Shown piece by piece: positions 10,685 to 53,393 of a stretch of DNA of 64,000 nt. Both the position numbers and the translations under genes were made by a program. Source of the stretch: Nemertoderma westbladi (Eukaryota > Animalia > Xenacoelomorpha); the NCBI GenBank assembly GCA_032718475.1, contig JAUCBJ010001165.1:1-64000 (forward strand), in the 5' to 3' direction. Each line of letters opens with the position of its first letter. Within the stretch, counting starts at the first letter, position 1. The notes under the pieces were generated by a model, which worked only from the letters and a program-made list of their open reading frames with translations, did no database searches and had not been told where the DNA came from.

Positions 10685-10808
10685 TGTGCTGTCTGGCTGT
10701 AGTCTGACTCAGGGATAAAAACTGTATAGGCCTAGTACCGGTATCTTTCTTGGTCTTATTGTCGGCAGGCCTACAGTCTATCTCAGTCTAACTGTACTGT
10801 GTCTCAGT

Positions 10809-29239: not shown

Positions 29240-30562
29240 TGTAAAAGCTTCTGTGGGATAGAACTGGCACTTAGCTCCGCAATCCAGTTATCTCCCCGTG
29301 CGCTCAAATACTCTAAAACCCTGCTGTGGAGTGTTTACGGATATAATCCGTTCCCTGGCTCACAAAGTACCGTATATGTAAAAGCTTTGTGGGATGACTG
29401 GCTCGTTTGCCTTGCTAAACAGTTCCCCCCCCCATCGCTGTGATACTCTCAAAGGGATCTGGCTTGAATGGCAAGCTGCCTGTTGGTTGGCTAGATTGCT
29501 CCTCCCTGGATGGAAGCTCTCAATAAGCCTGCCTGACATATCTGCCAATAAGATTGGAGCTAGTTCTGATTTTGTCCAATACCAAGCTACTGAACTGAAA
29601 ATCCGCTCTGTATGCTCCTAGGTTTCGCTTTTGATTAAAGTTCTTAGTTTTTCATCATTCAGTCACGAGTTTTAGACTTCTAAGCGAGGAGTGTTATAAG
29701 ATCGGTTCTGAGATGACGAAATGTTTTCTGCCTTTTGTACGAACATTGGTAGGCTAAATTATAGAAAGCATAACTGTTATCTTACTTAAATTAACAACTT
29801 ACCATATTTCTCGTTCAATCACTTAATAACTCGACTCAATGCAACAATTATATCTTAACCTACCGTCATACTGCTTTTACTGTTTGTAATTTTGTATCAG
29901 TATAATTGGATGTTATTATTTGAAGAATATCAATAATCAACCCACATTTTCCCAATCTCCTTGATACACTACAGGTTAGAGAGAAGGGTTATGTACAACA
30001 ATTGCGACTTTATTATTGTGTTTGTAGTGAATCTAATGTTGTTTGACAGACACTACCTGAGTCCAGTGCATATCTCTTTATACCTGATCAAAGTCAGTAA
30101 ATGTCGGCATACCAGTGAGCAGTATTGTGCGTTACCGGTAGCGTGAGTGATTGTAACGTGATTGGATCTGATAACAAAGCATTCCTAAAGAATGCGCCTT
30201 ATGCTTGAAATATAAGCCCTATCGTTGTGTTTAATATAAGTCATAACTCTGTTTACATAGGTAGAGCGCCACGTCCTAAAAGGAACTGCTAATATTTCCC
30301 GAAAGTGAATAATATTTGTCAGAGATTATATATTAGTGATAAATCGAATAATACAGTAGGCTTGCCCGCAAATAAATTTAAGCCCACGAATCCAGTCTCC
30401 CGGTGTTATATAACGGGTCATTTGGACGCGCATGGACTGGCTTCGGCTAATGTTCTGACTTGTTTTTATATTAAATCTTGTCATCGTATAAAAGGCTATT
30501 TATCAATAAAGACATATAAATTTCGGCAGGTTAAACTGCGGAAGGTCTACAAAGCGCGTACA
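29240..30562 (+). repeat. Copy B 5' LTR (1323 bp)
   Basis: Direct repeat of 46844-48167. Confidence 0.97.
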
Positions 30563-30573
30563 ATAACAGTTAT
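30563..30573 (+). promoter_or_regulatory. Copy B primer-binding-site position, ATAACAGTTAT (complementary to LTR 11-mer ATAACTGTTAT at 29770-29780)
   Basis: Directly abuts the LTR end, has no TGG, and has an exact 11-nt complement inside the LTR. Confidence 0.65.
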
Positions 30574-32618
30574 AAATCTTAATTTGCGGCAAGCAATAAG
30601 GTTAGAAAGTACCGGTCGACCGGTAAAGTAGAACCGGTACTCCAGTAGGTCCGTAGGTCCAACTGCCAGAACCGGTACTCTTGTAGGTCAGTAGGCCCTA
30701 CTGCCTGAACCGGTACTGCTGTACAAGTACCTTAGTATTATTTCGATTGTGATATTATACATTGGTAGGCTGTTTAAGAAATTAGGGACTGTACGTACAC
30801 CCCTTGTTTCTTTTGGAGCTTATTTATTTCTGTCAGTTCTTATTTACGTGTAAGTTAGTATTGAGTAGAAGACGTGTAAGTCTGCTCAGATTGTTCAGAT
30901 CATTGTAGGCTGGACTGTTGTCTGACTGTTGTTAGGCTTGAAGATTACAGCGTGTGTAGAGAGTCTGATAAAGGCCAGTTAGTAAGTTGAGGCAACTCAT
31001 AGTTGTAAGGTCAACCCTCTTTAAAGAATAAGTCGCGCTACCGTATTAGCACGCATACTCACTAACAAGTTTCAGAATCTGCATATACTGTGGTTATTTA
31101 GGCTTGATAGTAGTCCGTCAGCGTTTATACTGTACTGTCTGTATAATCTGTTCAGGTACCGTAATAGTATTATTTAGATATTTTGTAGGCTGGATTGTTG
31201 CCTAGCTGTTGTTGGTCTGAAGAATTGCCGCGTGTGTAGAGTGTGTCTGATAGGTGCCAGTTAGTAAGTTGGGGCAACTCGTAGTTGTAAGGTCAACCCC
31301 CTCTAAAGAATAAGCCGCGCTACCGTGTTAGCACGCATACTCACTAACGAGTTTCAGAATCTGCACATCCTGTAGTTTATTTAGGCTTAATGGTAGTTTG
31401 TCAACATTTGGTTTGTATTTTATTTGAGTATTCTGTACGGATAGCGTAATATTTATTACTCAGAGTTTATGCGATTACTCGCAACATTCATGTCCCCAAG
31501 TTTATTCCTACAGTAATTGTGTTTGTTATACATACCGTTATAGTTAAATTAACCCCAGTACTACACGGGCTGCTTGGCGTAGGTAAAGACTGGTGACTTA
31601 GTGCCCCGGTCACTCCAGCAGATGCTGTGGTTCTTTTAACTGTTCAAGTATATTTAACTACTGGTTATCTGTTTGACAAGTACTTGTACCTAATTTAGGG
31701 TTTAGTGTACAGTGCTTTCCGAGAGTAATTAGTGTAGGCATTATTGTGTTGTAAAGTAGTTAATAGGCACGCTCGTTCTGGTAGACGGCGGTAATTAACT
31801 TCTAGGTAGGAACACTCCGTAGATACATAACGTTGTACCTATAGCGATACGGCTGTAGGTCGTCAGGCGGTGGTATTTTCCTATCTAGACAACGCAGTAT
31901 TTACTTCTGCTTATTATTCTCAAATACCGTAGTATCCTGTCCGTTGCAATAACCAGAAGATCTAACCCTTTGTTGGACTGGTTATTAGTTCCCTGTAAAA
32001 TTGCCCTAAAAATTTCAGTGCGTAACGTTTTGTCTGTTTATTAGAGATTGTAATCTCACCAATAGTAAGTAACTAGTAGATAAGTAACGTAGGCCAGTAG
32101 AATTATTCTGTATAGTGTCTCATAGGTAGCACTTCACTGAAAGCGCACAGCTTCTGTGTAGTGGTATTTTACTGGAAATAGTAACACCTATTTCAATCTT
32201 GTAACAAATCCCTTATCAGGGTATATATATATTATAAATCAACTCCAAAGATTTATAAATCAGTAGGCCTGTCATAAAACAAGTAAGTCTCAATATCAGT
32301 TGGACTACTGCTTACATAACGGTAACAGAGTAACTCAAGTAACTAAGTAACTTATAATTTCAGAAATTCAATTATCCTAAATAATTGATGTACCGGTATC
32401 TCTAATAGGCTTATTATACAATTGTATATATTTGCACTGAAATTATATACTGGTATTCTGTGAAAAACCTAGTCTGTTATACTTATATATACTATAAGTG
32501 TATACCGGTATTTTAATATTGCAATTAATTACCGGTACTAGGCCAACAGTCTTACTGAATTACTGGACTTGCTTTAACTGTGACTATAGCAGTAGGCATT
32601 CAACTGTGCAACTGAGAT

Positions 32619-35600
32619 ATGTCTGACACACAACAGAATCTGTCGGACAGTCCACCAGACATTACACAGAACCTGTCGGACAGTCCACCAGACACTACCA
32701 TCTGTGACTCAGATAGGAGTGATAAGACTGATAGGACTCAGACAGAGCCCAGTTCACCTCCTACTGAAAGGAAAGTCACCCCTCTAGTAGTAGAATCAGA
32801 TCCCAAGCCAACACACCATAGGTCTATTATAGGCACTCGGGCCCAGGTAAAACGGAACCGAGAAGAAGCTGGCCCATCACAGCAACCTCCTGGCCAAGAA
32901 CCTAGTTCCCAGCAACCCGATAGCTCCAGTAATTCTGATACTGTAGAGCTGAACCCCGAACGCGGAGTGGAGACAGTGGATCCATCTTACCTTGATCCCT
33001 TTCTCACTCTCCCGACCGCGAAGATGGCTGCGGTCTTGATTGCGGTGGAGGAACACCAAGGAGATTGGGCGAGAAATAAGAAATCGACCCAAGAGAGTTA
33101 TTGGGGATACGCAAGGGAAGAATTGATGTCTGTCGTCGAGTCAAACTGGAATAATCCTGGAATAGGATTACCGCTCGATTTGTCAGAAGCGACTTGGGAA
33201 GATATACACAAGATGGGTGTGGCTAAAGATACTATGGATCCAGCTGTTTGGAAGAGGTCCGCAGCAGGATATGTGCAGGGATTCTTCAGCTCCTTACAGA
33301 GGCAGGAAGAACAGCTGTTTCGACAAACCCTAGGACCTCAAGAGCAGGAAGAGCTGCTTTATCAAGTACGTGCAAGTACATTACGCATTAGGCTGATCCT
33401 ATCGGCCTTTGAGGAAACATCTAAAAGAAGGCAAGACACGTCGCTGCAAGTGGCGGTCAAGACTTGGTTCCAGCGGATAGAGCCCAAGGTTAAAGAAACA
33501 GCCCAGTGGAAATCCCGACTGGCTGAGCGACCAACCGATGAGGAATCAACTGGTGCCATCCTTTCTCAAGTGGAAAGTGAAGAGGCGGCAGAGGGACCGC
33601 GAAAGAGAGACGCAATCGATACCTATTTGTCAGATTATCAGCGATTCATAGGAGACGAGGAGCTGAGAAGACGGCTGGCTGGATTTTCACCTAATAGTGA
33701 AGGAGCTAAGCGTGTGTTGGACTCAATTGATGCTGAGATGTTAGCTGCACATCAAGCTAAATTTGATGAAGAAAGACGCATCGCTAGAGCCCAGGAAGCA
33801 CAAGTCCAGAAAAAACGAATAGAAGATCGAAAAGCAGCTGCAGTGGCAGCAGCAGAGGCAGAGGCAGAAAGAAAAGCAGCAGAGGCAGAAAGAAAAGCAG
33901 CAGAGGCAGAAAGAAAGGCAGCAGCAGCAGAGGCAGAGGCAGAAAGAAAGGCAGCAGCAGCAGAGGCAGAGGCAGAAAGAAAGACAGCAGCGGCAGAAGC
34001 AGAAAAGAGAGCGTCTGAAGAGATCGCCCAACTAGAGTTGGAAACTCTGCAAGAGACCCAAGACGACATTAGTAAGCGTTTTACAGAAGGTCGAATGCAG
34101 ATAAAAGGTCGATCTAATTCCAAACGCCTAGGGTATACATCCTCGGAGGAAGGAGATACCACCGACCCTGAAGGTGGAGGAAATAGATCTCGTCTCAGTA
34201 GGCGTAAAAGAATGTCTCCCCGTCAGAGATTGCCTGATTTGCCTCCAGCTGTTAGAAGACAAATATCTAGCACTGCAGTAGGTAGTACAGAACCCACAGA
34301 CCGAACTATTACCATCACCAGACTCCCTACTATAGTAGATGAGCCGGAAATAATTAAGCCTGTTCTAGAAAACACCCCTTCGGTGAGAGAGACCCCTGTA
34401 CTCCCCAAACCTACTACAAAATTCCCTTTACACAGTACTATTAAATTGACTGCACCTGGTGGAGCAGCCCAAGTCCCAGTTCTGGAGACCGAGAGAGACA
34501 TACAAGATTTGTCTCCCGTCGTCCCGATGCGGCCCGCTACAACGTTGGCGACTCCCGCTTCGGCGGTCGAGTGGGTTGAGAAGGGACGGCGGGAGATGAG
34601 TCTCTTGCTCGGTCAAATGAGAGAACAGCGGGACTGTTCCTCCCAACAGATCCGGGACTTAGAAGGGACTGTCTACCAACTCAAGGGAACAGTAAGGGAT
34701 AGTAGGATAGAGCTGCAAGAAGTGCAGCAAAATATCGCGCTCGAGCGCGACAAATTAGTCAATATACAAAGGGGAATACCAACACCCCCTGTAACCCTGT
34801 GTCAACCTGCTAGGTCTGAAGTGTATCATGCGCGAGGTGTGTCGCCTACACGCATATATACTGCTAGCAAAGTAGAAACACCCCCCGTAACCCTGAGTCA
34901 GCCTGTTAGGTCTGAAGTATATCATGCGCAAGGTGTGTCGCCTATACGCATATATACTGCTAGCGAAGTAGAAACTCCTATAGTAAACCCTATTAAGGGA
35001 GATTACAAACCTGTGAGTGATGATATTCCCTATAGACCTGATAATAATCCGAAAAATTTATATACCGATAATTCGATATTAAATAACACGATGGCCCAAG
35101 AAAGCTTTACGCGTCAGATGGCTAGAACAGAAGCCCGCCAAGCGGTCAAAGTGGGAGAAATTGTCAAATTCAACGGAGATGAGATGAAATGGTTACCTTT
35201 TAAAGAATATTATGAAGATAGCATACAGAACTCTGTACTATCTAGCGGAGAGAAACTGAGATTCCTCATCAAATGTTTGGAAGGACCTCCCAAGTTAATG
35301 GCGTTGAAGTTTATTGGACATCCAAATGGATTAAGACAAGTCTGGGATACATTAAACACCAGGTATGGTAATAAAGATAATATCGCTAAGTATTTGTATG
35401 CAAAACTGGTAGCTCCCCGAAAGTTCCTTAGTAACGAGATTATAGAGTTTTCCGATGAGATTCAAGAAATCTGCAGGCAATTGGATTGGTTAGGTAAGTC
35501 CCATGAATATCAGAGCTCCATGGTTATCGGAGCCATAGTCTCTACTTTGCCAAAGGGTGGAGTATGTACACGTTGGGACAAGAAGGTGTTGCATATGATG

Positions 35601-38600
35601 GAACAACAACGAAGGAGTCCTATCATGGCGGATCTCATGTCATTCCTAGACTGCGAGGTCAAACTACAGCTAATCAAGCAATCCCGAGAAAAAACATCGG
35701 AAACCAAGGTAAGTGAGAAACCCGTTTCTAGGAGGAGAGTAACCCCAGTATGTTATACTGACGAAGGCGAGAGCCAAGTTTCTCAAGAAGAAGACAGCGG
35801 AAAGGACACAGACCACTCTTATTATTTTAACAAAAACTCGAGTGACGTAAGTAAATACCAACCTCGAACCAATGATAGGAGAGATAAGTTTACCAAGACC
35901 CCTCCTCAGTCTCCCAAAAGAATTCAGGTAAGAAAGCCCGAAGAAAGAACCAAAGTGCATAACATTACCCAAGGTAAAGTGAGCAACATCAAGTTAAACT
36001 GTGCACTGTGCGACGGGCTCCACCGCTTGGGTGCGTGTGCTGAATTCCTAAAGAAACCCCTAGCAGACAGGAGAGAAGTCGTGTGGAATAAGCGGTTATG
36101 TTATAATTGCCTCAGACCAGGACACCAACGGCAGACCTGTTACTCCGATATAAGGTGTGCAAAGTGCGGTGCGAAACATCACAGCTTGCTACATAGTGAA
36201 CTCGACCGAAACCACCCGAGTCAGGTAAGTGAGCCCGAACTGCACGTCCAATTCAGTGATGTGAACGACACCGACCAAGGTTCTGAGTGGGAGGGATTCT
36301 ACACAGACGAATTCTCTGATGCCAACGAATCCTGTTATCTAATAAACACCGCAGTGTATCGAGCACTTACGTACGAAAAGGACAACGATACGGAGTTTCC
36401 ATCAACCCCCTTGGATAAGCAACCATCTTGGAAAGTTCCAACATCCAACATAGGAATACGAGAATTTCCGGTAGTCCAGGTAAGAGTTCACGGTCCCAAC
36501 AAAAGTTACATAGTGAACGCCCTCCTTGACTCAGGTAGCACCGGAACATTCATCGACAAGGAATTGGCCGAGGATATTTTTGCTGGACAACCCAAATTCC
36601 GAACTAAGTTAAATATGTCCGGAATTATGCAGGTTTGGAAATCTACCTTAACGGCAGATTACTATATCGGCTCATTGTCCACTCCACAGGATAGATTAGG
36701 GGAACAAAGTATAAGGTCAGTAAAAATGGTGGCAATAAAGAACTTCGCTACTACTCAAGTAGAACCTTATGACTGGGACGAGGACGAGAACATCCAACAT
36801 CTAGGAATACCTCGATTCCAAACTGATTATCCTGGAGTACAAATCCTCATAGGCCAAAACGCGCACGAGGCGCTCGAGACGTTAGAGAAACGGCCTGCTC
36901 AACCGCAGCCATTACAACCTTATGCGGTGAGAACTCGAGTAGGTTGGTACTTCACTGGCCCTTCCCGTAGAACCCTTGAAGAAAGACTGCCACAAGACCG
37001 GACACTTCAAGTGAATGATTGGGAAGAGGAGAGCAGTGAGGTTGACGAACTCACTGAGGGAATACAATACTCCTCAGACAACGACAACACCTACCAACTC
37101 TTCGAGGAAGAGCACACGATCGATTTATTAACCGAGAATAACACATGGAGTGACCAGCAAACTTTGTGTCAACTAATTTATCCATCAGGATCTATGGACT
37201 ACAATGACGAACTCAATGAAGAGATAGAGCGTCACAACGCTAGAACCCGAGACGAACTTGCCGTACGATTCTTTACCCAAGAGCTAGTAGAACCAAATTC
37301 GTACGATAAGGCTCTATCAATAGAAGAGGAAAGAGCCAAGCAAATTCAGGAAACAACTACGCGTTTTCTAAAAGATCAGGGTAGGTATGAAATCGGCCTA
37401 CCATTTCGAAAACGAGAACCTAGATTTATAAACAACAGACCCTTGGCCGAGAAAAGACTCTCTCAATTGCATCGACGCCTTACGGCAAACGCTTCAGCTA
37501 AAGAAATGTACCAAACGCAGCTGAAGAAATTTATTAGCAAGGGTTATGCGGAGCGAGTACCGGAAGAAACACCCATAACAGAGAGAACATACTACCTAAC
37601 ACATCATTATGTTCCCAAACCCGGTAAACCACATGAAGTACGCGTGGTATTTGATGGCTCCGCCCTATATAAGGGTCAATCTCTGAATTCCGAGTTGCTA
37701 CCAGGACCCAACTTACTACAATCACTGTTGGGAATACTTCTGAGATTAAGACAATATTCTATAGCGTTCGCCTCCGATATCGAAGGAATGTTCTTACAGG
37801 TTAAGGCGTTAGATAAAGATAGAGACAGTTTAAGGTTTCTATGGTGGCCTGAAGGAGACCTCCAACGGACACCAGAGGAGTACTGGATGACCATCCAAGC
37901 TTTTGGGATCATATCCAGTCCTTCCAACGCCTGCTCCGTAGTACGAACTACTGCGGATGACAACCGAGACGCCTTCTCCAAAGAGGTGATTGACAACATC
38001 AAGAAGAACATCTACATGGACGACAATTTAAAGTCCCTTCCATCGGTAGAACAAGCCATTGAGGTCGCGAAAGGAACGGTAGAGTGTTTGAAAAGAGGTG
38101 GATTTCGACTGACGAAATTCACTAGCAACTCCCGCGAGTTTCTAGAAGCGATACCGATAGAAGACCGAGGAGCGAAAGACCTCGATCTGATAAAAGACGA
38201 TCTTCCAGAGACCAAGACGCTTGGCTTAAAATGGGACACAGAAAGAGATATCCTGTTTTTTCAACTAAAACAGCGCGAGAATCCAGTTCGGACCAAACGG
38301 ATTTGTCTAAGTATCCTGAGCACTTATTTCGACCCATTAGGATTTATTAGTCCAGTCATATTGATTGCTCGGAGTTTAGTACAGCAAATGTGGCTGGAAA
38401 ACCACTCATGGGACGATCCACTTACGGGAGAGCTACTAAAGAAATGGATGAAATGGGAGGATTCTCTACCTGCCATCGAGAGTTTTATAATTTCCCGTTC
38501 ATATTTTGGTCATGTTCTCCCTACGTATTCCTATCAACTCCATGTGTTTGGAGACGCGAGCGACACGGGAATAGGAATAGTAGCATACCTTCGAGTCGAG

Positions 38601-40898
38601 ACTCCAGATGGAATCAAAGTCGCCTTGGTTACCTCTAAGGCATTGATTAATAACAAGTTGAAGGTTCCTCGAGCGGAGTTGAAGGCGGCTCTCTACGCTA
38701 CAGCCATCGGACGGAATGTAACGGAACAGATCGATTATACACTGGAGAAAACTGTGTATTGGACCGACGCTTTGCTCGTGTTGGAATATATAACCAATGA
38801 AGTCTGTCAGTTCAGCGTCTTTGTCACCAACCGAGTGGCCATCATCCTCAGTCGCACAACGATAGACCAATGGAGACACTGCCCTGGTACGATTAACCCA
38901 GCTGATATCGCCTCCAGAGGAGCAACTCCACAAGAACTGATAGATACTCCAGACTGGTTGGGTGGACCCGACTTCCTAAGCAAGGAAGAGGACGAATGGC
39001 CTCCTCACCTTACTACGGCGGAGATCAGACAAGCCAAGGGAGCGGAAAAGATTAAACCAAAAACCCGAGCGAGCAAATCGAAGTTATTCAAACCGCCGAT
39101 CGATCTATCTGTATTACATGCTTCTGGAAATGATGCTTCGGATCCACAATCCCTCGTCACAAACAAATCTGTTGTGGAAATTAAGGACAAAGATTGGCGA
39201 TCTGGAACACCAGACGTCTCGCAAGGAATCTCACCCCTGTTGCAGAGAGCAATACAACATTACAGTTCCTGGAATCGGCTCTGTAAGGCCGTCGCTTATT
39301 TAAAACGATTCTTTCATCATCGTTATTCTGGGACGAAGACCACTGGTGATGCTGCACCACTGACAACAGCCCAAGTCCATGTTATTAAAGATTTACCGAA
39401 ATACAAAACACCATGCCGGTTTCTAAAAGAAAAGATCAGTTATCAGGAGCATGAAGAAGCCAATAAACAAATACTGCGGCTCCTGCAATGCTACGAGGAT
39501 TCTGACAAGTACTTCCTGCTGTTAAGAAACCCGCAGATGCGCTTGAGGGATCGCTTCTCTAGCATAATGATCGATGGGTTAATACGTGTTGGAGGAAGGC
39601 TTACCAACGCGCCATTGTCCTTTGACACTAAATTCCCCATAATAGTTAGAAATCTTGAAGTACAAATCAAGATGATTGTAGACGCCCACAGTAAATTATA
39701 TCATGCTGGTAGAGAACGAGTTCTTAGCGAAATTCGAACGCGCTATTATTTCTATAAACCCCGTAGAGCTCTAAATCAAGTTCTTAGGAACTGCATACCC
39801 TGTAGGAAAGCATTCAGTAGGCCTTTAACACAGCGAGAGGCAGAATTACCTAGGGAACGAGTAAGCTTTTATGAACCACCCTTTACTAATACTGGTGTGG
39901 ATTTATTTGGCCCTATTGAAGTATATCGTGCTAGGACTATAGTCAAGAGATGGTGCGTCGTCTTCGTGTGCATGACTTGTCGAGCCATCCATCTTGATAT
40001 GGTGAACGATCTATCCACTAACAGCTTCGTCTTAAGTTTACGACGACAGATCGCTCGCTTCGGAACTAGTAATACCATGCGATCGGACAAGGGAACGAAC
40101 TTCATTGGCGCCAATAACGAAATCCAGGCTTACGTAAAGGACTGGAACCAAAGACAGGTGGACGATCAGCTAAGAATAACCGCGTCTAGCTGGACCTTCA
40201 ACGCCGCCGACGCCCCTTGGTGGGGAGGAAGTTGGGAGAGATTGATTCGGAGTGTTAAGACAGCATTTCACTTTATAGTGCCGTGCCGTGCGTATCTCAC
40301 CGACGAACTTTTGCGAACGTTAATGGAGGAAATCGCTGCCTATCTCAACGAGAGACCGCTTATGCCAGTCTCATGGAGTCCCGATTCCCTGGAAGCGCTA
40401 ACACCCGCGCACTTCCTACTTAAGAAACCTGTAGCCATGCTTCCCCAATCCGAGATTGCCGACGGAGACGAATATTGCCGCCGAACTTGGCAACTTATGC
40501 AGTTGCTATCTCGTCGTTTCGCTGATCACTTTGAAAAGCATTATCTGCCCACACTACAACTTCGAACTAAGTGGTTTGCGCAGCAAGAAAATGTCAGCGC
40601 CGGAGACATGGTGCTTATTGTGGATCCCGACCTCCCACGTAAGCGGTGGCAGACAGGACGCATCATAGAGACTCACATTTCAAGTGACGGTTTGGTACGA
40701 TCAGTAGAACTCGTAGTTATGCGGCGTAACTTCAAAAAACCGGGAATAATATTTGAGACGCAACAACTCAATCGCCCAGTTGGTCGTTTATGTTTATTAG
40801 AAAGAGACAGAGAACTCTCCGGAAACTATGGAAGGCAAGACACTCTTCCCACGACCACCTCCCTAATTCCTCAAACATCTAGGGACTCCCCGCCTTAA
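32619..40898 (+). CDS. BEL/Pao Gag-Pol polyprotein, 2759 aa, intact
   Basis: BEL-type triple knuckle (CALCDGLHRLGAC, CYNCLRPGHQRQTC, CAKCGAKHHSLLH); protease ALLDSGS; RT RVVFDGS, SDIEGMFLQV, YMDD; RNase H HVFGDAS, PRAEL, WTDA, NPADIASRG; integrase H..H/CIPC, GVDLFGP, SDKGTNF, WERLIRSVK; C-terminal DGLVRSV/RPVGRL. Confidence 0.98.
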   Translation: MSDTQQNLSDSPPDITQNLSDSPPDTTICDSDRSDKTDRTQTEPSSPPTERKVTPLVVESDPKPTHHRSIIGTRAQVKRNREEAGPSQQPPGQEPSSQQPDSSSNSDTVELNPERGVETVDPSYLDPFLTLPTAKMAAVLIAVEEHQGDWARNKKSTQESYWGYAREELMSVVESNWNNPGIGLPLDLSEATWEDIHKMGVAKDTMDPAVWKRSAAGYVQGFFSSLQRQEEQLFRQTLGPQEQEELLYQVRASTLRIRLILSAFEETSKRRQDTSLQVAVKTWFQRIEPKVKETAQWKSRLAERPTDEESTGAILSQVESEEAAEGPRKRDAIDTYLSDYQRFIGDEELRRRLAGFSPNSEGAKRVLDSIDAEMLAAHQAKFDEERRIARAQEAQVQKKRIEDRKAAAVAAAEAEAERKAAEAERKAAEAERKAAAAEAEAERKAAAAEAEAERKTAAAEAEKRASEEIAQLELETLQETQDDISKRFTEGRMQIKGRSNSKRLGYTSSEEGDTTDPEGGGNRSRLSRRKRMSPRQRLPDLPPAVRRQISSTAVGSTEPTDRTITITRLPTIVDEPEIIKPVLENTPSVRETPVLPKPTTKFPLHSTIKLTAPGGAAQVPVLETERDIQDLSPVVPMRPATTLATPASAVEWVEKGRREMSLLLGQMREQRDCSSQQIRDLEGTVYQLKGTVRDSRIELQEVQQNIALERDKLVNIQRGIPTPPVTLCQPARSEVYHARGVSPTRIYTASKVETPPVTLSQPVRSEVYHAQGVSPIRIYTASEVETPIVNPIKGDYKPVSDDIPYRPDNNPKNLYTDNSILNNTMAQESFTRQMARTEARQAVKVGEIVKFNGDEMKWLPFKEYYEDSIQNSVLSSGEKLRFLIKCLEGPPKLMALKFIGHPNGLRQVWDTLNTRYGNKDNIAKYLYAKLVAPRKFLSNEIIEFSDEIQEICRQLDWLGKSHEYQSSMVIGAIVSTLPKGGVCTRWDKKVLHMMEQQRRSPIMADLMSFLDCEVKLQLIKQSREKTSETKVSEKPVSRRRVTPVCYTDEGESQVSQEEDSGKDTDHSYYFNKNSSDVSKYQPRTNDRRDKFTKTPPQSPKRIQVRKPEERTKVHNITQGKVSNIKLNCALCDGLHRLGACAEFLKKPLADRREVVWNKRLCYNCLRPGHQRQTCYSDIRCAKCGAKHHSLLHSELDRNHPSQVSEPELHVQFSDVNDTDQGSEWEGFYTDEFSDANESCYLINTAVYRALTYEKDNDTEFPSTPLDKQPSWKVPTSNIGIREFPVVQVRVHGPNKSYIVNALLDSGSTGTFIDKELAEDIFAGQPKFRTKLNMSGIMQVWKSTLTADYYIGSLSTPQDRLGEQSIRSVKMVAIKNFATTQVEPYDWDEDENIQHLGIPRFQTDYPGVQILIGQNAHEALETLEKRPAQPQPLQPYAVRTRVGWYFTGPSRRTLEERLPQDRTLQVNDWEEESSEVDELTEGIQYSSDNDNTYQLFEEEHTIDLLTENNTWSDQQTLCQLIYPSGSMDYNDELNEEIERHNARTRDELAVRFFTQELVEPNSYDKALSIEEERAKQIQETTTRFLKDQGRYEIGLPFRKREPRFINNRPLAEKRLSQLHRRLTANASAKEMYQTQLKKFISKGYAERVPEETPITERTYYLTHHYVPKPGKPHEVRVVFDGSALYKGQSLNSELLPGPNLLQSLLGILLRLRQYSIAFASDIEGMFLQVKALDKDRDSLRFLWWPEGDLQRTPEEYWMTIQAFGIISSPSNACSVVRTTADDNRDAFSKEVIDNIKKNIYMDDNLKSLPSVEQAIEVAKGTVECLKRGGFRLTKFTSNSREFLEAIPIEDRGAKDLDLIKDDLPETKTLGLKWDTERDILFFQLKQRENPVRTKRICLSILSTYFDPLGFISPVILIARSLVQQMWLENHSWDDPLTGELLKKWMKWEDSLPAIESFIISRSYFGHVLPTYSYQLHVFGDASDTGIGIVAYLRVETPDGIKVALVTSKALINNKLKVPRAELKAALYATAIGRNVTEQIDYTLEKTVYWTDALLVLEYITNEVCQFSVFVTNRVAIILSRTTIDQWRHCPGTINPADIASRGATPQELIDTPDWLGGPDFLSKEEDEWPPHLTTAEIRQAKGAEKIKPKTRASKSKLFKPPIDLSVLHASGNDASDPQSLVTNKSVVEIKDKDWRSGTPDVSQGISPLLQRAIQHYSSWNRLCKAVAYLKRFFHHRYSGTKTTGDAAPLTTAQVHVIKDLPKYKTPCRFLKEKISYQEHEEANKQILRLLQCYEDSDKYFLLLRNPQMRLRDRFSSIMIDGLIRVGGRLTNAPLSFDTKFPIIVRNLEVQIKMIVDAHSKLYHAGRERVLSEIRTRYYFYKPRRALNQVLRNCIPCRKAFSRPLTQREAELPRERVSFYEPPFTNTGVDLFGPIEVYRARTIVKRWCVVFVCMTCRAIHLDMVNDLSTNSFVLSLRRQIARFGTSNTMRSDKGTNFIGANNEIQAYVKDWNQRQVDDQLRITASSWTFNAADAPWWGGSWERLIRSVKTAFHFIVPCRAYLTDELLRTLMEEIAAYLNERPLMPVSWSPDSLEALTPAHFLLKKPVAMLPQSEIADGDEYCRRTWQLMQLLSRRFADHFEKHYLPTLQLRTKWFAQQENVSAGDMVLIVDPDLPRKRWQTGRIIETHISSDGLVRSVELVVMRRNFKKPGIIFETQQLNRPVGRLCLLERDRELSGNYGRQDTLPTTTSLIPQTSRDSPP

Positions 40899-42531
40899 TG
40901 CGTCTGGAGTGGGCGTATGACTATAATATTTTCTCTGTTTTATTTATTTTATATAAATATTATTATTTACTTTATTATAATCGTTTTTATTTAATTTTAG
41001 TTAAGTAGAATGTTATTTTGGATTATTTGGTAGACTAGTGCAATATATTAGTGTTTATTACGTAATTACCTAATATACTTAGTGCGACGACGAGAAACAA
41101 TTATTTTTCTCTTTCCTTACTGTCCGTATTATATTATAAACGCGAGACTATAGTAAGATGATATGTCCGTACTTATTAAAGTACAATAAAGCCACTACTA
41201 TATTTCGTGTATTATTGGTAGGCAGAGTATTAGGAATGCAAAGTTCAGATCCTCGTGTCTCGGCTAAACCAAGCTCTGGGTAGACCTTGGAAACGACTTG
41301 CCTCTTCACACTGACATTGCTTCGTGCGATATTGCTCTTCTACCTATATTAAATAATACATATAGTAGCGTGATGTCCCTCTAACAGTAGCGTAAAACGC
41401 AAATAAATCTGTTAAACTTTTTGACCATCTGTAATTCTAGTCGATTAAGATATCGTGGCACCCACCGATATACTTGAAAGACAAATTCTAGAATCAGTGG
41501 TTAACGTCCCCAGACAAGTTCTGGAATAAATCCCGTGTAGTGCCCATCTTAAATATTAATTTAATATTTATTAAAATCTGGCAAATTCAGATCCTTTAAA
41601 ATTTCTAGTCAATTGAGATATCGTAGCACTTACCGGTATTCTTAAAAGACCATTTTATAGAATTAAGGATCTTATGTCCCCAGATATGTTCTGGAATCAA
41701 AATTGTGTCAATTTCACCATCAAATAATAAAATTCACGGGAATAAATCTAGAATTCATATTTTTATGAATTTAATAAATTGTCATTTTGCACAATTTCTA
41801 ATATTCCCAAAATTCCACTAATTAATAGATCACGGGAGCGGAGATTCATTCGATTGAGTGTGCTAGAGTGCGAGAATCTCCAACATATAGTCAATAGCCG
41901 ATAAAATTCATAAAGTCATGTATAAAGAGGATATTGACAAACTAAAGACTTACTATCAAACAGCATCCCAGATCTGTATGCATGAGAACTACCCTAATTC
42001 TACCGCTAGCTTTACATAATGTCACCATAGCAACACCCACGCTAGAATTAGAAACGAGTTAAAAGAACAATAGAAAACTTGTACCGTTGCCTAGCATAGT
42101 GATTATATAGCACACGGTTGGTATCCAAGGATACACAATAACAACAACGTGACATTCTGGAAGGCATTGACTAACGGACAAATGGCCTGTATGATGGTAG
42201 TTGGTAGCTGTTGTGTGGAATTTGTGCGTTTGTAGGTGAATGTTGCTGCTAAAGTGTGTTTACAGTAGCTAGTCGCAATTGTAAGATAACCCAACTCTCC
42301 CATAGCAAGAACCTCAAGTGATTACAAGCCTTTGGGACGGACAGTGGAGTGACTTGTGCCGGTTATCGTTGTCGTGCTGTTGCCACAACGTTGGCGTAAA
42401 CACCGCGACAGCGGTACATCGGCGCTGAGAATCCCACTGCCCGGGGGGCCTCGATTAGTAGGCAGCGACGCCCGCTAGCCTAAAACATATATATAAACTC
42501 GTTACAATATTGGTGGATCGCGATAGCAGAT

Positions 42532-44943
42532 ATGACGGAATTGATAGAAGATGATCTTGGTATCAGGGAGCGATATAATGTACCTTTGCAGGCGTTTGTG
42601 GATAGCTTGATAAGTGGTGAACCCGGTCACACCACTACGGAGGAAGATGGTCGTTACATCGAACCGCCAATGTCCCAAGAGCAACTCACGCGTGAATTGG
42701 ACTATAGAAAATTCACCGCTCGCTATACGCATCGTAATGGTACGTATATGGACTTTCTAACCACCGGCCATCCGATCGACCTACATGATACGGACGATGT
42801 AGACACCGAAAGAGAAATGGTTTTGTTTAAATACCACGCTCAGCGGAGTCGTAACGATAAACCAAGAATAGACCACGATAACTCTATTCGTAACCGGCTC
42901 GACCGAGAAAACGTTGAGGAACCCGATAAGCGTATCAACTTCAACGACTACCTGGAATTTTTGAGAGAAACTTATCTCAATATTGCCAGTCAACAAAACC
43001 TAGAGACTCGATATCCTCAAGGTATACATCATGATCCCATGGTAGAACTCCAACGACTCTATTTCACCATGATGTATCTCACGGCCGATCGTCCACTACC
43101 CGTGGTTCCCGATAGCTTTGCACAAATGGAGGAGTATTGCAAAACTGGAGAACGATCACCCGCATTCCCTCTACAGGACGTACGTCTATGGTATTATTGT
43201 GACGAATGCCCTAGACCCAACCAACAAACCGAAAGAAGTAAACATCCGCGGAGACGTTGCGCTAAACACAGTTTTACGCGTTGTACGTACGGGAGTTTCG
43301 AGCGAAACCTGTTCGATGTATCGCCCACGGTCGCTCGTCTCAAACAATCACTCAATAAACCCATGATCAGAGTTCCGGAATACTCGGTCAGGCCTCCTCA
43401 TTCCCCTATTAGACCTCAAACTCTTGATCCTAATAGTATCACTGATCCTCCCGAACTATATTCTCTGTTCAAAGACGTGGTGTTACCTGAGCAGTTAATA
43501 GGTGGTACTCCGGTAGTGGGTTCTTTAGACATTCGACCATCCTACCTAGCCGGATTGGGACGCGGGCATCTTATATCGCCATTTAATCCCTACAACCGCC
43601 CCGGATTAACCCCGATTCAACCTGCCACGGAAGTCGAGGAGAGCGTTATCAGAAATGCTTTAGACGCTATTCGACAGAAAATCGGGAAAGGAACACAGGA
43701 TTACCTCGAGAAACGTAAATTACAGCAACAAGTCCAAGCGGTGAAGGATTTAGCCTTACCACAGTTCGATCGAGAGATACAAAACCTCGAGAACGACATC
43801 GAGCTGGGACGCACGTACTCTCTACAGGAGTTTCTAGATGAGCGTATGCGACAACGAGCGGAGGAGAACCAACTCGAAAGGAAACATACGGAAATGGACG
43901 AGAGGGAAGAAGCCGCTTTAGCTCAACCCGAAGCCCAAATCCTTATGACGGACCTCTACTCTAAAACTATCCGTCATCCCTCGATGATTCCCAACTTCGG
44001 AGATAAACTCTTCGCGAAAGTACAACCCCAACCGGTCGATATTAGTACAGGATCGCACCAGCTTATCGCCGACGCCCCCATGTTACAGCGCCCGCCGATC
44101 GAAGCTGCTCGCGTTGACAGTATACTCGTTGAACCTCCGGACAATCGAGCGGATCTTATCCGTCGTATGGTACACGATGTCAACATACGCGCTCGTCCTT
44201 TAACGAACTCGTTTTATGGGATTAAAGATCACCCTTATTACGTTAATCTGACTCAATATTATATGATAAAACCGGAAGATCCTATGCATAGCTTGAAGTT
44301 TCTACCGTTAATAAATCCTCTGGACATTGTCGAACTCGAGCAATTACAGAAACATTTGGATCAGTTAGTAAAGGTAAACTCATTTAGAAAACCATATAAC
44401 ATTTCTAGAATTGAGAATGATACGATACCTCCTTATAACCTCGATGGCTTCATTAAAACTCGATTAGTCCATTGGAATCTCGACGTATTATTCGAGGAGG
44501 AGAGAATAAAAAGACACGGAAATATGGAGACGTGTAACACTCAATCCTTGAAGTATAGTGATCTCCCTGACGCTAACCAATGTGCTACCTTGTGGCACCC
44601 GGTAGGGATGACCCTCGAGAACGCTACAAAGGAGTGGAATGAAACTCTTAATATCATTGAGATGTATGGAGTAGTTACCTACGATAATGAAGGCAGCGTT
44701 CCAGTCGGAGAATTAGGAACTACGCGCATGATCCATATACGCGGATTAGCCGGTTCTACCCACGTGTTTACTCAAGCGTGCTCCGACGTGATTGATTATT
44801 CTTTTGAAACTCTCACCGAAACACAAAAGAATCTCCGGCATGGACAATTCGTACTCGCGCAGCGTTACGTCATTGACACCGAACGTAAACCGGATGCTAC
44901 CCCAACCCGTGCTCGAGATGTTGTTCAACGAAAAGATCCTTAA
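42532..44943 (+). CDS. Accessory ORF2, N-terminal 803 aa (Cys/His cluster, Pro-rich region, coiled coil, exonuclease motif I); frameshifted at 44893
   Basis: Long open frame homologous to copies A and C. GVVTYDNEGS has its D/E at 44683-44691. A 20-bp deletion relative to copy C shifts the frame. Confidence 0.85.
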   Translation: MTELIEDDLGIRERYNVPLQAFVDSLISGEPGHTTTEEDGRYIEPPMSQEQLTRELDYRKFTARYTHRNGTYMDFLTTGHPIDLHDTDDVDTEREMVLFKYHAQRSRNDKPRIDHDNSIRNRLDRENVEEPDKRINFNDYLEFLRETYLNIASQQNLETRYPQGIHHDPMVELQRLYFTMMYLTADRPLPVVPDSFAQMEEYCKTGERSPAFPLQDVRLWYYCDECPRPNQQTERSKHPRRRCAKHSFTRCTYGSFERNLFDVSPTVARLKQSLNKPMIRVPEYSVRPPHSPIRPQTLDPNSITDPPELYSLFKDVVLPEQLIGGTPVVGSLDIRPSYLAGLGRGHLISPFNPYNRPGLTPIQPATEVEESVIRNALDAIRQKIGKGTQDYLEKRKLQQQVQAVKDLALPQFDREIQNLENDIELGRTYSLQEFLDERMRQRAEENQLERKHTEMDEREEAALAQPEAQILMTDLYSKTIRHPSMIPNFGDKLFAKVQPQPVDISTGSHQLIADAPMLQRPPIEAARVDSILVEPPDNRADLIRRMVHDVNIRARPLTNSFYGIKDHPYYVNLTQYYMIKPEDPMHSLKFLPLINPLDIVELEQLQKHLDQLVKVNSFRKPYNISRIENDTIPPYNLDGFIKTRLVHWNLDVLFEEERIKRHGNMETCNTQSLKYSDLPDANQCATLWHPVGMTLENATKEWNETLNIIEMYGVVTYDNEGSVPVGELGTTRMIHIRGLAGSTHVFTQACSDVIDYSFETLTETQKNLRHGQFVLAQRYVIDTERKPDATPTRARDVVQRKDP

Positions 44944-44989
44944 AATCGGTTCCGCTGTTTATTGAGATCTACAAAATGACTTTCGAAAT

Positions 44990-46765
44990 ATGGAGGATAC
45001 ACCATATCCATTTGTAGATATGCAGTTAATTGCCCCTTGGGCAGAAGGCCGAGGTTTCTTCCATACCATGTACGCTAATACGTCTAACGACATTACTAAA
45101 GTTCAACGAACTTCCATCGGACATATTGCCTTTCAGGAATACGGATGGAATTTCAAGGTTGGAAATCCCCTTAATTATCAACAAGTATATGGAGACCATT
45201 ATTCCCGATTATACTTTGACGGACCGTTGACCGCACCTGGCGCCGTGTATAGCTTCATGAGTGTTCCACTCCGTCCCTCTTTAGCTATCTACACGATCTT
45301 GGAAAATACCGCACTTTCCGGTTGGCTAGCCGACGTGTGCAGTCGTACTATACGCTCCCATCCGTTAATACTTGGGACCAAACTCGCTAAGCTAGATGAA
45401 CATAATAAATTCATACGCTTTGAATGTTTCCGGCGATTTCTAACCCCGTTCCGCAACGTGGATAGCCAATTTAAAGATCGCGCGTTGACCAAACTCAGCC
45501 TAAGAAACTCAGCTGCTGAGAAGTTGGATAGTGCCGGATTTGCCCTATTTAAGGATATTTGTATCGAGAATTTACATTCTTCTGTTATACAAAGACCTCG
45601 AATCACCACAGGTTATTCTGTCGTTGAGATTCAAACAGTGGGTCCACCAGAAGAGTCAACTACGCTCACCGCATCTACGCACTGGGAAGACGAGCCTATG
45701 TGTATGGAATCTGAGGAGATTCAACCCACTACGCCCCGGAACAGCGACAACGATTACATTATCGAATGGTATCAAGGTCCACAGTGTCTCACTGCGTATG
45801 ATTATCGCCATGCCAACTATGTTGATCGTCAGCGTTGTCGGTTATGCGCATCTAGAGACCATATTACGCCTATGGATACGAATATCCCATGTTCCTATTT
45901 CCAAGAACAGCCTTCAATGGAAATTTACTGCGCTTATTGTCGACTCAATGATTCGCACATTTTTGCTGTCTGCCCCCAGTTCATGACGCAATGCCACCAT
46001 TGTCAGTTGAAAGGACACGCCAGCTTTGATTGTCCCTTTAATAAAGACTTGGAGAGTGTAGACGAAATGATTGTACTCCGTTATATTCGAGCTTGGGAAG
46101 CGAACGCTGATTTACATTGTGACTCACGTCATCGTTACTACCCTGGACGCGCTTACGAAGGAGTTTATGCGTTCCATCCGTATTTATTCGCTTCTGTCGA
46201 ACAGAAAGCGTGCATCCCGAGTTACGAGCTATTAAAGCGCGTCGGAGAATGTATTTCGACTAAGTTTGTGCGCAAATTCCTTAGAAGAGTTAACCCCAGT
46301 GATATTCATTCCTATTATTTAATCAATTTTATCCGACACGATCCGGACTATGGAGAATTATTCGTTAACTCGCATCCTGAGTTACAAGAAGTATATCGAA
46401 GGCCTTACGAATATCGAGCCCGCGAACGCGAGTTGGAGAGAACCATTAAACCAAGACAGTTTCTGACAGCCTACGGTCCACCCACGGCTTCCGTTCAGAC
46501 CACTCGCAGAGGACCTGTGAGAGCAGCCGCCCTAAAGCGAGCTCTAAAGGCCGTTAGACCCCAGTCCCCCGATGTTGATGGCAACCTACCCGGAACCTCA
46601 ACCGGCGGATACACCGACAACAACCCTGCACCCTCTGATGCAATTATATTGCACCCTTCACCCAGGAGCTATAGCCCTCCTTGTAAAGTGGCTCGCCCCA
46701 AAGAGAAAAGGACTCTGGCTAGCCTTAAAAAACTGCGTAAACGTCGTCCGCGCAAGAAAGACTAA
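44990..46765 (+). CDS. Accessory ORF2, C-terminal 591 aa (rest of DEDDy-like exonuclease, zinc knuckles, basic tail)
   Basis: PFVDMQLIA, SIGHIAFQEYG and PLRPSLAIYTILE; CRLC....H, CAYC.....H....CP and CHHCQLKGHASFDCP; ends KKLRKRRPRKKD. Continuous with the upstream part in copy C (ORF 58591-60072). Confidence 0.85.
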   Translation: MEDTPYPFVDMQLIAPWAEGRGFFHTMYANTSNDITKVQRTSIGHIAFQEYGWNFKVGNPLNYQQVYGDHYSRLYFDGPLTAPGAVYSFMSVPLRPSLAIYTILENTALSGWLADVCSRTIRSHPLILGTKLAKLDEHNKFIRFECFRRFLTPFRNVDSQFKDRALTKLSLRNSAAEKLDSAGFALFKDICIENLHSSVIQRPRITTGYSVVEIQTVGPPEESTTLTASTHWEDEPMCMESEEIQPTTPRNSDNDYIIEWYQGPQCLTAYDYRHANYVDRQRCRLCASRDHITPMDTNIPCSYFQEQPSMEIYCAYCRLNDSHIFAVCPQFMTQCHHCQLKGHASFDCPFNKDLESVDEMIVLRYIRAWEANADLHCDSRHRYYPGRAYEGVYAFHPYLFASVEQKACIPSYELLKRVGECISTKFVRKFLRRVNPSDIHSYYLINFIRHDPDYGELFVNSHPELQEVYRRPYEYRARERELERTIKPRQFLTAYGPPTASVQTTRRGPVRAAALKRALKAVRPQSPDVDGNLPGTSTGGYTDNNPAPSDAIILHPSPRSYSPPCKVARPKEKRTLASLKKLRKRRPRKKD

Positions 46766-46834
46766 CGGTTTAGAGTATTTATGTATATTAGAAACTGCGA
46801 TTTTGTATATTTTATAGACTTCAATCTCATTTTC

Positions 46835-46843
46835 TGGGAGCGG
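46835..46843 (+). promoter_or_regulatory. Polypurine tract TGGGAGCGG
   Basis: Abuts the 3' LTR; identical in copies A (17427-17435) and C (57733-57741). Confidence 0.8.
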
Positions 46844-48167
46844 TGTAAAAGCTTCTGTGGGATAGAACTGGCACTTAGCTCCGCAATCCAGTTATCTCCC
46901 CGTGCGCTCAAATACTCTAAAACCCTGCTGTGGAGTGTTTACGGAGATAATCCGTTCCCTGGCTCACAAAGTACCGTATATGTAAAAGCTTTGTGGGATG
47001 ACTGGCTCGTTTGCCTTGCTAAACAGTTCCCCCCCCCCATCGCTGTGATACTCTCAAAGGGATCTGGCTTGAATGGCAAGCTGCCTGTTGGTTGGCTAGA
47101 TTGCTCCTCCCTGGATGGAAGCTCTCAATAAGCCTGCCTGACATATCTGCCAATAAGATTGGAGCTAGTTCTGATTTTGTCCAATACCAAGCTACTGAAC
47201 TGAAAATCCGCTCTGTATGCTCCTAGGTTTCGCTTTTGATTAAAGTTCTTAGTTTTTCATCATTCAGTCACGAGTTTTAGACTTCTAAGCGAGGAGTGTT
47301 ATAAGATCGGTTCTGAGATGACGAAATGTTTTCTGCCTTTTGTACGAACATTGGTAGGCTAAATTATAGAAAGCATAACTGTTATCTTACTTAAATTAAC
47401 AACTTACCATATTTCTCGTTCAATCACTTAATAACTCGACTCAATGCAACAATTTTATCTTAACCTACCGTCATACTGCTTTTACTGTTTGTAATTTTGT
47501 ATCAGTATAATTGGATGTTATTATTTGAAGAATATCAATAATCAACCCACATTTTCCCAATCTCCTTGATACACTACAGGTTAGAGAGAAGGGTTATGTA
47601 CAACAATTGCGACTTTATTATTGTGTTTGTAGTGAATCTAATGTTGTTTGACAGACACTACCTGAGTCCAGTGCATATCTCTTTATACCTGATCAAAGTC
47701 AGTAAATGTCGGCATACCAGTGAGCAGTATTGTGCGTTACCGGTAGCGTGAGTGATTGTAACGTGATTGGATCTGATAACAAAGCATTCCTAAAGAATGC
47801 GCCTTATGCTTGAAATATAAGCCCTATCGTTGTGTTTAATATAAGTCATAACTCTGTTTACATAGGTAGAGCGCCACGTCCTAAAAGGAACTGCTAATAT
47901 TTCCCGAAAGTGAATAATATTTGTCAGAGATTATATATTAGTGATAAATCGAATAATACAGTAGGCTTGCCCGCAAATAAATTTAAGCCCACGAATCCAG
48001 TCTCCCGGTGTTATATAACGGGTCATTTGGACGCGCATGGACTGGCTTCGGCTAATGTTCTGACTTGTTTTTATATTAAATCTTGTCATCGTATAAAAGG
48101 CTATTTATCAATAAAGACATATAAATTTCGGCAGGTTAAACTGCGGAAGGTCTACAAAGCGCGTACA
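46844..48167 (+). repeat. Copy B 3' LTR (1324 bp)
   Basis: Direct repeat of 29240-30562. Confidence 0.97.
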
Positions 48168-52726: not shown

Positions 52727-53393
52727 GTTCCAGGAACCGCAGTAGGAATCCCATAAAGGATAGATGGAACCCGTAGACCCAACGGGTCACTCATGGGTTA
52801 CATCCAACTAGTAGACCCAACGGGTAACCCATGGGTTACATCCAATCCTTAGACCCAACGGGTAACCCGTGGGTTACATCCAACCAGTAGACCCAACGGG
52901 TAACCCATTGGTTACATCCAACTAGTAGACCCAACGAGTAACCCATGGGTTACATCCAACTAGTAGACCCAACGGGTAACCCATGGGTTACATCCAACTA
53001 GTAGACCCAACGGGTAACCAATGGGTTACATCCAACCCATAGACCCAACGGGTAACCCATGGGTTACATCCAACCAGTACAGCAGTGGACCCAACGGTAA
53101 CCCATGGGTTACATCCAACTAGTAGACCCAACGGGTAACCAATGGGTTACATCCAACCCATAGACCCAACGGGTAACCCATGGGTTACATCCAACCAGTA
53201 CAGCAGTGGACCCAACGGTAACCCATGGGTTACATCCAACCCGTAGACCCAACGGGTACCCTATGGGTTACATCCAACCCATAGACCCAACGGGTAACCC
53301 ATGGGTTACATCCAACCAGTACAGCAGTAGACCCAACGGGTAACCCATGGGTTCCATTCAACGAGACGCCCTCCGGCTGTTAAACCTAAAGGG
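52727..53393 (-). repeat. Inverted copy of the 38-bp palindromic minisatellite plus tail; right arm of a long inverted repeat
   Basis: GTTCCAGGAACCGCAGTAGGAATCCCATAAAGGATAGATGGAACCCGTAGAC is the exact reverse complement of 11678-11729, followed by ~14 units. The outer boundary (GGG at 53391-53393) is tentative. Confidence 0.9.

Follow-up and report, generated by a model that had tools for sequence, protein, structure and literature searches.

What does a BEL/Pao retrotransposon do with a second large gene that does not encode an envelope? The question is raised by a 64,000-nucleotide stretch of the genome of the xenacoelomorph Nemertoderma westbladi (GenBank assembly GCA_032718475.1, contig JAUCBJ010001165.1, positions 1 to 64,000; hereafter the window). 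Self-comparison of the window revealed three related elements, copies A, B and C, that carry a second open reading frame (ORF2) between pol and the 3' long terminal repeat (LTR). We found that ORF2 is a real, conserved gene under purifying selection, and its product very probably contains a 3'-5' exonuclease of the DEDDy class with the acid set D-E-D-E.

Copy B is a BEL/Pao LTR retrotransposon. Its LTRs of 1,323 and 1,324 bp (TG...CA) differ by two substitutions and one gap in 1,324 columns; it has a 5-bp target duplication, GCCGG, and lies nested in the 5' LTR of copy A. The gag-pol frame encodes DUF1759, three gag knuckles, a protease (PR), a reverse transcriptase (RT) with a YMDD motif, Peptidase_A17, an integrase (IN) and DUF5641. 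Pfam recovers the BEL/Pao markers Peptidase_A17 (E 2.8e-36), DUF5641 (1.6e-19) and DUF1759 (5.7e-13), and the pol order is that of BEL/Pao, PR-RT-RH-IN (RH, RNase H), with the integrase zinc domain after RH. Copy A, on the minus strand, is a derivative from which most of the RT/RNase H region and the integrase has been deleted, and its LTR pieces match its own 3' LTR at 97-99%. Copy C, also on the minus strand, extends beyond the window edge.

In copy B, ORF2 starts 1,633 bases past the pol stop (40898) and ends 78 bases short of the 3' LTR. An earlier note on this DNA had placed the gene between pol and the 3' LTR in all three copies; the position is confirmed in copy B, and the nuclease is found in only two of the three (B and C). 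Between B and C, the ratio of nonsynonymous to synonymous substitution rates (dN/dS; Nei-Gojobori) is 0.129 over 1,380 codons (95% bootstrap interval 0.10-0.16), and between B and A it is 0.127 over 441 codons; gapped and stop codons (three stops in B/C, eight in B/A) and positions 44887-44965 of B were excluded. By region, the N-terminal 567 codons have a B/C ratio of 0.13, the nuclease (237 codons) one of 0.12, the knuckles (79 codons) one of 0.05 and the C-terminus one of 0.15; for comparison, the ratio is 0.04 in the last 156 pol codons and 0.16 in a 724-codon gag-pol segment. The earlier note had held that a ratio near 1 would overturn its reading; a value of about 0.13 instead excludes a drifting passenger.

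ORF2 is intact in none of the three window copies. A frameshifting deletion and a stop codon break copy B, both within the predicted nuclease, and copy C has three stops upstream of the nuclease and one frameshift among the knuckles. What is left of ORF2 in copy A corresponds to residues 1-479 of the first frame of B plus ~40 C-terminal codons. The earlier note had combined B and C to make the nuclease visible, which proved unnecessary, since copy C holds the whole region from ExoI to ExoIII inside one natural 587-residue frame (58591-60354, minus strand). Contigs from four public runs, presumed to be DNA, cover 30 of 30 bins of 40700-46900. Two contig records (X4 record 22 and X6 record 29) span B's deletion and hold the stretch that B is missing, and several contig joints (42050-46367) skip 2.0-2.8 kb within ORF2 while sparing its 3' end, as in copy A. 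The element family is thus widespread in these runs, whose contig depths are not equal to copy numbers; B's lesion is not family-wide, and nuclease-less derivatives are common. The 3' end of ORF2, retained in deleted derivatives, may overlap a cis-acting signal.

The available evidence supports a non-envelope accessory gene. Averaged over 19 residues, hydropathy peaks at 1.09-1.33 in three of four ORF2 frames from the window and at 0.37 in the fourth. With this maximum of 1.33 and an acidic N-terminus, the gene lacks a transmembrane segment or signal peptide, as had been claimed, by hydropathy rather than by a dedicated signal-peptide predictor. No known envelope protein or fusogen was matched in Pfam or PDB. 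The low hydropathy and the missing fusogen match together indicate that ORF2 is not env.

What, then, does the gene encode? Language-model neighbours, an RNase D profile and a distant homologue converge on one family and on one segment, which makes the DEDDy-class assignment very probable. The motifs quoted in the earlier note are all present, namely, VVTYDNEG in B and C, and LPQPVLEMLFNERILKIGSAVYGD, FVDTQLIA and SIGHLA in C; copy B has the variants FVDMQ and SIGHIA. The last ExoIII acid was also read correctly, copy B having E and copy C having V. The ExoI DxE ends a hydrophobic strand in both copies (VVTYDNE), as it does in RNase D (AIALDTE) and in the homologue P0008 (ILSIDVE). The ExoIII spacing, PL-x6-Y-x3, is that of Escherichia coli RNase D, where the acid is D; here, it is E in B and P0008 and non-acidic in C. 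The ordered motif set was found in RNase D, P0008 and copy C and in 0 of 20,000 shuffles, using a pattern written after the sequences had been viewed.

P0008, a protein of 648 amino acids, was the one real match of two obtained in a search of the full library of 1.84 billion proteins. It aligns with ORF2 at E 1.4e-5 with 28% identity over 173 columns (26-28% overall) and possesses the DxE, the ExoII Asp, the DTQ, the PL-x6-Y-x3-E, three knuckles and a basic tail. Its knuckles match the HIV/retroviral nucleocapsid at E 1e-4, with a weak match to Air2 as well. Among Atlas clusters, the nearest to P0008 is of a euglenozoan exonuclease-plus-CCHC type (0.86, a lead only), with an EXD1-like cluster appearing only at 0.77. 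P0008 derives from a 9,449-base contig and, known from the protein alone, is not established as retroelement-borne. Shared-word protein searches gave none among 3,111 candidates (longer proteins), none among 596 and only P0008 itself among 1,303. P0007, a repetitive trypanosomatid protein that matches the acidic linker, was rejected as compositional.

Consistently with an exonuclease, the language-model features of copy C residues 120-430 have as their three best neighbours clusters named 3'-5' exonuclease (score 0.94), with 172-177 of 256 features in common and PF01612 present in 28-51% of the cluster members. The nearest Atlas clusters of the C nuclease are large-DNA-virus proteins, which is no evidence of transfer. 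The RNase D model TIGR01388 matches C residues ~228-274 with E 0.0096 and 15.2 bits, against a 299-bit cut-off. A profile of 81 RNase D sequences aligns over 47 columns free of gaps, which brings the ExoII Asp and the DTQ into register, scoring 11.0 versus a maximum of 8.0 in 1,000 shuffles; this match and that of TIGR01388 cover one segment and are not independent. The earlier note had compared the motif spacing with the WRN-exo/Mut-7(Nibbler)/EXD/Egalitarian nucleases, and the broad RNase D/WRN class stands, with no single subfamily favoured.

Several observations weigh against this identity. ExoI is the weakest motif; alone, it occurs in 2,325 of 20,000 shuffles (12%), and it was aligned with the ExoI of P0008 in one of three MAFFT runs. 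The ExoI-ExoII distance is 101 residues, longer than that of RNase D (57) or P0008 (68), and the assignment requires an insertion of 30-45 residues. Among shuffled proteins, 4-10% attain an Atlas score of 0.9. A Pfam check for DNA_pol_A_exo1, which the earlier note had suggested, gave no exonuclease match in the window frames at E<=1, and PF01612 hits P0008 only at E 0.2 (11.9 bits versus a curated cut-off of 23.6). No window copy combines an open frame with all four acids. Profile-profile alignment (hhalign) of single sequences to a shallow RNase D alignment returned a probability of 0.1. The AlphaFold models, from a single sequence and from a four-row alignment (mean confidence, pLDDT, 30.5 and 30.6), are both uninformative, so that the exonuclease-plus-knuckle reading is supported by prediction and the models add nothing to it. 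No HRDC domain follows the nuclease in the window frames or P0008 at E<=1, as it would in Rrp6 or RNase D proper. PDB sequence searches with the window frames gave nothing significant, and a PDB profile search gave RNase D at E 0.99. No match was found in PHROGs, nothing relevant in phages and plasmids by tblastn, and no locus related to P0008, to the C frame or to the RT region in viral or metagenome contigs.

The nuclease is embedded in a larger protein (Table 1). The N-terminal half contains a Cys/His cluster (43198-43284). The three knuckles reported previously are present, although only the third is a canonical CX2CX4HX4C, the others being CX2CX4HX9C and CX2CX5HX4C, and Pfam zf-CCHC_3 on them remains below its cut-off (E 0.056). 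The C-terminus, described earlier as resembling a nuclear localization signal (NLS), is indeed basic and reads KKLRKRRPRKKD. At the start of the gene, the three copies share an unchanged CAG-AT-ATG, whereas the preceding bases vary, and no ATG occurs in the 280 bases upstream of the ORF2 start. The long hairpin before it, with counterparts at 62147-62262 and 19098-19214 (minus strand), was equalled in 0 of 200 shuffles in each copy; copy A keeps it despite having lost most of ORF2. Rfam gave no match above the gathering score on 28300-48600. Because of the invariant CAG before the ATG and the conserved hairpin, the ORF2 message is likely to be spliced or internally started.

Table 1. Features of the three BEL/Pao copies in the window
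Feature	Coordinates	Strand	Basis or remark
Copy B, complete BEL/Pao element of 18,928 bp	29240..48167	+	LTRs and target duplication
5' LTR of copy B	29240..30562	+	LTR comparison
3' LTR of copy B	46844..48167	+	LTR comparison
gag-pol of copy B, unbroken, 2,760 codons	32616..40898	+	
ORF2 of copy B, ~1,400 codons, ATG 42532 to stop 46765	42532..46765	+	broken near 44,890 (frameshifting deletion) and at 44,963-44,965 (stop)
ORF2 of copy C	57812..62064	-	3 stops and 1 frameshift outside nuclease; ExoIII acid replaced
ORF2 remnant of copy A	17547..19023	-	nuclease and knuckles deleted; 8 stops, 6 frameshifts
Predicted DEDDy-class 3'-5' exonuclease, copy B	44671..45304	+	language-model neighbours, profile, homologue
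ExoI DxE, copy B	within 44680-44694	+	motif
ExoII D, copy B	44966-44968	+	motif
DxQ, copy B	45014-45028	+	motif
ExoIII PL-x6-Y-x3-E, copy B	45266-45304	+	motif
N-terminal ~700 residues, no known family	42532..44610	+	purifying selection
Three Cys/His knuckles, of which one is a canonical CCHC and two are variants	45836..46033	+	
Basic C-terminal tail	46727..46762	+	putatively NLS-like or RNA-binding
CAG-AT-ATG, candidate splice acceptor and start codon	42527..42534	+	three-copy comparison
Conserved long hairpin, ~90 bases 5' of ORF2	42338..42443	+	z -4.3 (B), -4.9 (C), -6.1 (A)
Candidate self-primer, 11-base LTR sequence complementary to primer site	29770..29780	+	second copy 47375-47385
Primer-binding site, non-tRNA type, no TGG start	30563..30573	+	

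How such a protein might serve the element can be approached through its architecture. In the mechanism that we tentatively prefer, ORF2 would be expressed from a spliced or internally started RNA, and its product would be an RNase D/WRN-type 3'-5' exonuclease with zinc knuckles that acts in trans. The knuckles would grip single-stranded RNA tails and feed their 3' ends to a two-metal site, as in the trypanosome enzyme TbRND; the basic tail would give a nuclear or perinuclear location; and the substrate would be host small silencing RNAs or their precursors, which would be shortened or destroyed. As a whole chain, including the substrate, this is a possibility that we favour over the others without considering it probable. 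Small-RNA trimming is preferred because such nucleases recur across priming modes and because the closest architectural precedent acts on small RNAs; the presence of DEDDy genes in unrelated retroelements and in ampeloviruses likewise argues for a role that would be independent of any one priming mode. Action in trans is suggested because copy A and the derivative contigs without a nuclease are mobile copies.

Three points speak against the silencing-RNA mechanism. Mature PIWI-interacting RNAs (piRNAs) have 2'-O-methylated ends that resist trimming. The selection on ORF2 is steadily purifying and resembles that on a housekeeping gene rather than an arms race. Finally, the DEDDy-bearing families of bdelloid rotifers are, in the portions of that study considered here, still covered by small RNAs, with no clear gain in copy number (PMC5408684).

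A different substrate is suggested by the primer-binding site, from which the element is apparently self-primed. In A as well as in B, each of the 11 bases after the 5' LTR has its complement within the LTR, with one compensatory change between the two copies (the copy A site follows 28405, minus strand), and shuffled LTRs yield such a complement in 18 and 31 of 20,000 trials. The LTR partner of the 11-mer is kept in all three copies amid a poorly conserved region. The 18-nucleotide tRNA primer site of the ICTV profile is not found; the site has no TGG start, an internal part of a tRNA may match it, and the window contains no tRNA genes. A primer site with at least 10 bases complementary to the element's own LTR, as present here, is the Tf1 type as described in the text consulted of PMC6317226. 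The 11-mer lies 764-782 bases from the LTR end. Just one TATA (47932) is shared among the three LTRs; it lies 234-236 from that end and is followed by A(A/T)TAAA (47976), 184-192 from it, which puts the shared TATA and AATAAA ~550-600 bases downstream of the 11-mer. If this TATA/poly(A) layout is textbook, the 11-mer would be in U3, near the RNA 3' end, and trimming would possibly be needed. Also common to the LTRs are ATTATA, 6-7 bases before the 11-mer, and a donor-like AG-GTTAG between the 11-mer and the TATA, which fits an RNA start at the 11-mer. The most conserved LTR block, 47844-47943 (B LTR positions 1001-1100), has 92% three-way identity and the shared TATA at its end.

The exonuclease could, on this basis, mature the element's own primer, trimming an unpaired 3' extension or poly(A) of the 11-mer back to the duplex to leave a paired 3'-OH, with the knuckles acting as an annealing chaperone for the 11-mer and the primer site. 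The perfect complement with its compensatory change, the predicted U3 position of the 11-mer near the RNA 3' end, and selection on ORF2 as strong as that on gag-pol are consistent with such a role. However, Tf1 itself needs only an RNase H cleavage of its first 11 RNA bases, with no exonuclease in the published account as consulted (PMC7175516), the AG-GTTAG site fits a start upstream of the shared TATA, and use of the downstream poly(A) signal would require the removal of ~600 conserved bases. Altogether, we regard primer maturation as unlikely. The evolutionary claim built on it, that a BEL/Pao lineage swapped tRNA priming for a primer taken by cleavage from the 3' portion of the element's RNA, which a dedicated exonuclease-plus-knuckle protein anneals and trims, is decidedly unlikely; if true, a primer made by a dedicated nuclease would be a priming route unlike both tRNA priming and the RNase H cut of Tf1. 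The described parts of the Tf1/sushi system share the 11-base primer site complementary to the own LTR (PMC7175516, PMC6317226) and differ in that they were described in Ty3/gypsy and proposed for some copia elements (PMC7175516, PMC6317226); the Tf1 partner is the RNA start, and here the partner, which may or may not be the RNA start, is ~780 bases from the LTR end.

An unlikely reading of the same standing is that ORF2 binds RNA and that catalysis is secondary or absent. The protein would be an adaptor or decoy that protects or exports unspliced element RNA, or, in a variant, competes with host 3'-end surveillance (Rrp6/TRAMP-like or Egalitarian/EXD1-like). Half of the protein (~700 residues) belongs to no known family and is as conserved as the nuclease; the basic tail and knuckles, the E rather than D in ExoIII and its non-acidic counterpart in C would fit binding, and the strong conserved hairpin just upstream is a possible binding site. 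Inactive DEDD derivatives also act in piRNA pathways, according to the rotifer study in the part used here (PMC5408684). Catalysis is favoured by the four acidic positions and the Tyr that are present in P0008, at ~26-28% identity, and in the codons of B.

A WRN-like enzyme acting on DNA, with a nuclear role in trimming single-stranded cDNA ends or by-products, is highly unlikely. The DEDDy class does include DNA exonucleases, as stated in the rotifer study (PMC5408684, in part), the nearest Atlas clusters are of large-DNA-virus origin and the tail is NLS-like, but the best profile matches are to RNase D and the precedents that join knuckles to an exonuclease act on RNA. Comparably improbable is that the motifs are a chance likeness or part of a captured host fragment without a nuclease fold; the missing above-threshold family match, the two uninformative folds and the low profile-profile probability would allow it, but three lines point to one family and segment and the dN/dS excludes a drifting passenger. 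Proofreading of reverse transcription by analogy to nidovirus ExoN, the least supported of the three roles proposed in the earlier note, is very improbable: the element is indeed 18.9 kb long against 4.2-10 kb for the family (PMC8742986) and the same idea has been put forward for ampelovirus DEDDy genes in the portion of that work consulted (PMC8297929), but ORF2 lies apart from pol with no evident link to the RT, ~1/3 of the element length is ORF2 and its spacer, and the rotifer carriers have short LTRs (159-551 bp) and are not reported as oversized in the text consulted (PMC5408684).

The surroundings of the elements add some context. Copy A lies inside a 38-bp satellite (12522-14651 and 48544-50477) with a 5-bp duplication containing one mismatch, and the nest spans 14652-48541. 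The end of the copy A 3' LTR is split by a TTAA-flanked insert (~14662-16229), which we take to be piggyBac-like. A second 38-bp tandem repeat forms an inverted pair (10798-11729 and 52727-53362) that flanks the whole nest and resembles the termini of a large fold-back element. The leaders of the elements are 2.1 and 2.7 kb long; that of copy A contains a 290-bp unit four times (26961-28123), and copy B has a diverged, shorter version near 30900-31460. A frame of a non-LTR retrotransposon (7917-10708, minus strand), which encodes AP endonuclease and RT domains, is unrelated to the ORF2 finding. Duplicated blocks in 1-7925, 97-100% identical and with a 206-bp tandem unit, represent a recent duplication or an assembly artefact, and a 318-codon open frame (51561-52517, plus strand) lies between the satellite and copy C.

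Our literature searches found no exonuclease in a BEL/Pao element; Repbase, GyDB, subscription journals and supplements, which were outside their scope, could hold a precedent. A nematode Cer (BEL/Pao) element is reportedly drawn with an exonuclease domain, for which these searches gave no support. In the accessible main text, the word exonuclease is absent from PMC3118150, PMC2774666, PMC13524379 and PMC9094657 and used once each, in an unrelated sense, in PMC11599104 and PMC11662393. The novelty of a nuclease-bearing retrotransposon, which the earlier note had implied, was nevertheless set too high, as DEDDy third genes have been published for rotifers (PMC5408684, in the part consulted). 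The present case extends nuclease-bearing retrotransposons to a further superfamily. The repeated capture of 3'-5' exonucleases by unrelated retroelements, often with knuckles, points to an unsolved step in transposon-host conflict or in priming, and the element family allows two clean tests, of the RNA start and end relative to the 11-mer and of the nuclease substrate.

The ICTV profile of Belpaoviridae lists elements of 4.2-10 kb with gag, pol and env only and an 18-nucleotide tRNA-Arg/Gly primer site (PMC8742986). Copy B shares the PR-RT-RH-IN order of gag-pol, the BEL/Pao Pfam markers and the LTRs; it differs in its non-env second gene, its 11-base LTR-complementary primer site and its length, nearly twice the ICTV size range (PMC8742986). 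Oversized BEL/Pao elements may be under-sampled, because a 2011 survey, in the part consulted, gave preference to 2-15 kb candidates in cases of disagreement between its two finders (PMC3118150).

The ampeloviruses CaAV-1 and PAVA carry WRN-class DEDDy genes and, similarly to what is predicted for the present element, are mobile RNA genomes with a captured DEDDy exonuclease, although theirs are small stand-alone proteins (p27b and p25) of plant RNA viruses with strong WRN_exo matches (PMC8297929). TbRND, a trypanosome RNase D with C-terminal CCHC fingers, trims the U-tails of guide RNAs and depletes guide RNAs when overexpressed; as predicted for ORF2, its 3'-5' DEDD exonuclease precedes a tandem set of CCHC knuckles and an HRDC domain is absent, and, unlike ORF2, it is a cellular mitochondrial enzyme with four fingers (PMC7797062). 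No sequence match to the TbRND PDB entries was obtained at E<=10.

The closest precedent among retrotransposons is the DEDDy-exonuclease ORF3 of the bdelloid rotifer LTR elements Juno and Vesta, shared with Athena/Terminon (Rodriguez, Kenefick and Arkhipova 2017, PMC5408684) and repeated in reviews (PMC5718144, PMC6431247, PMC6338049), again as far as these texts were consulted. It, too, is a non-env gene downstream of pol, RNase D-like, with altered DEDDy acids and without a transmembrane segment, and the rotifer study had already suggested a link to 3'-end processing or silencing, the same roles as those proposed here (PMC5408684). Compared by description only, Juno and Vesta are gypsy-like rather than BEL/Pao and have the motif DEED, as opposed to DEDE. 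ORF2 further differs from their gene in its size of ~1,400 codons, in a ~700-residue N-terminus of no known family, in its three knuckles and its basic tail, and in its apparently self-primed carrier; and to the rotifer study, which reports no selection signal within genomes in the part considered (PMC5408684), it adds strong purifying selection between subfamilies (dN/dS ~0.13).

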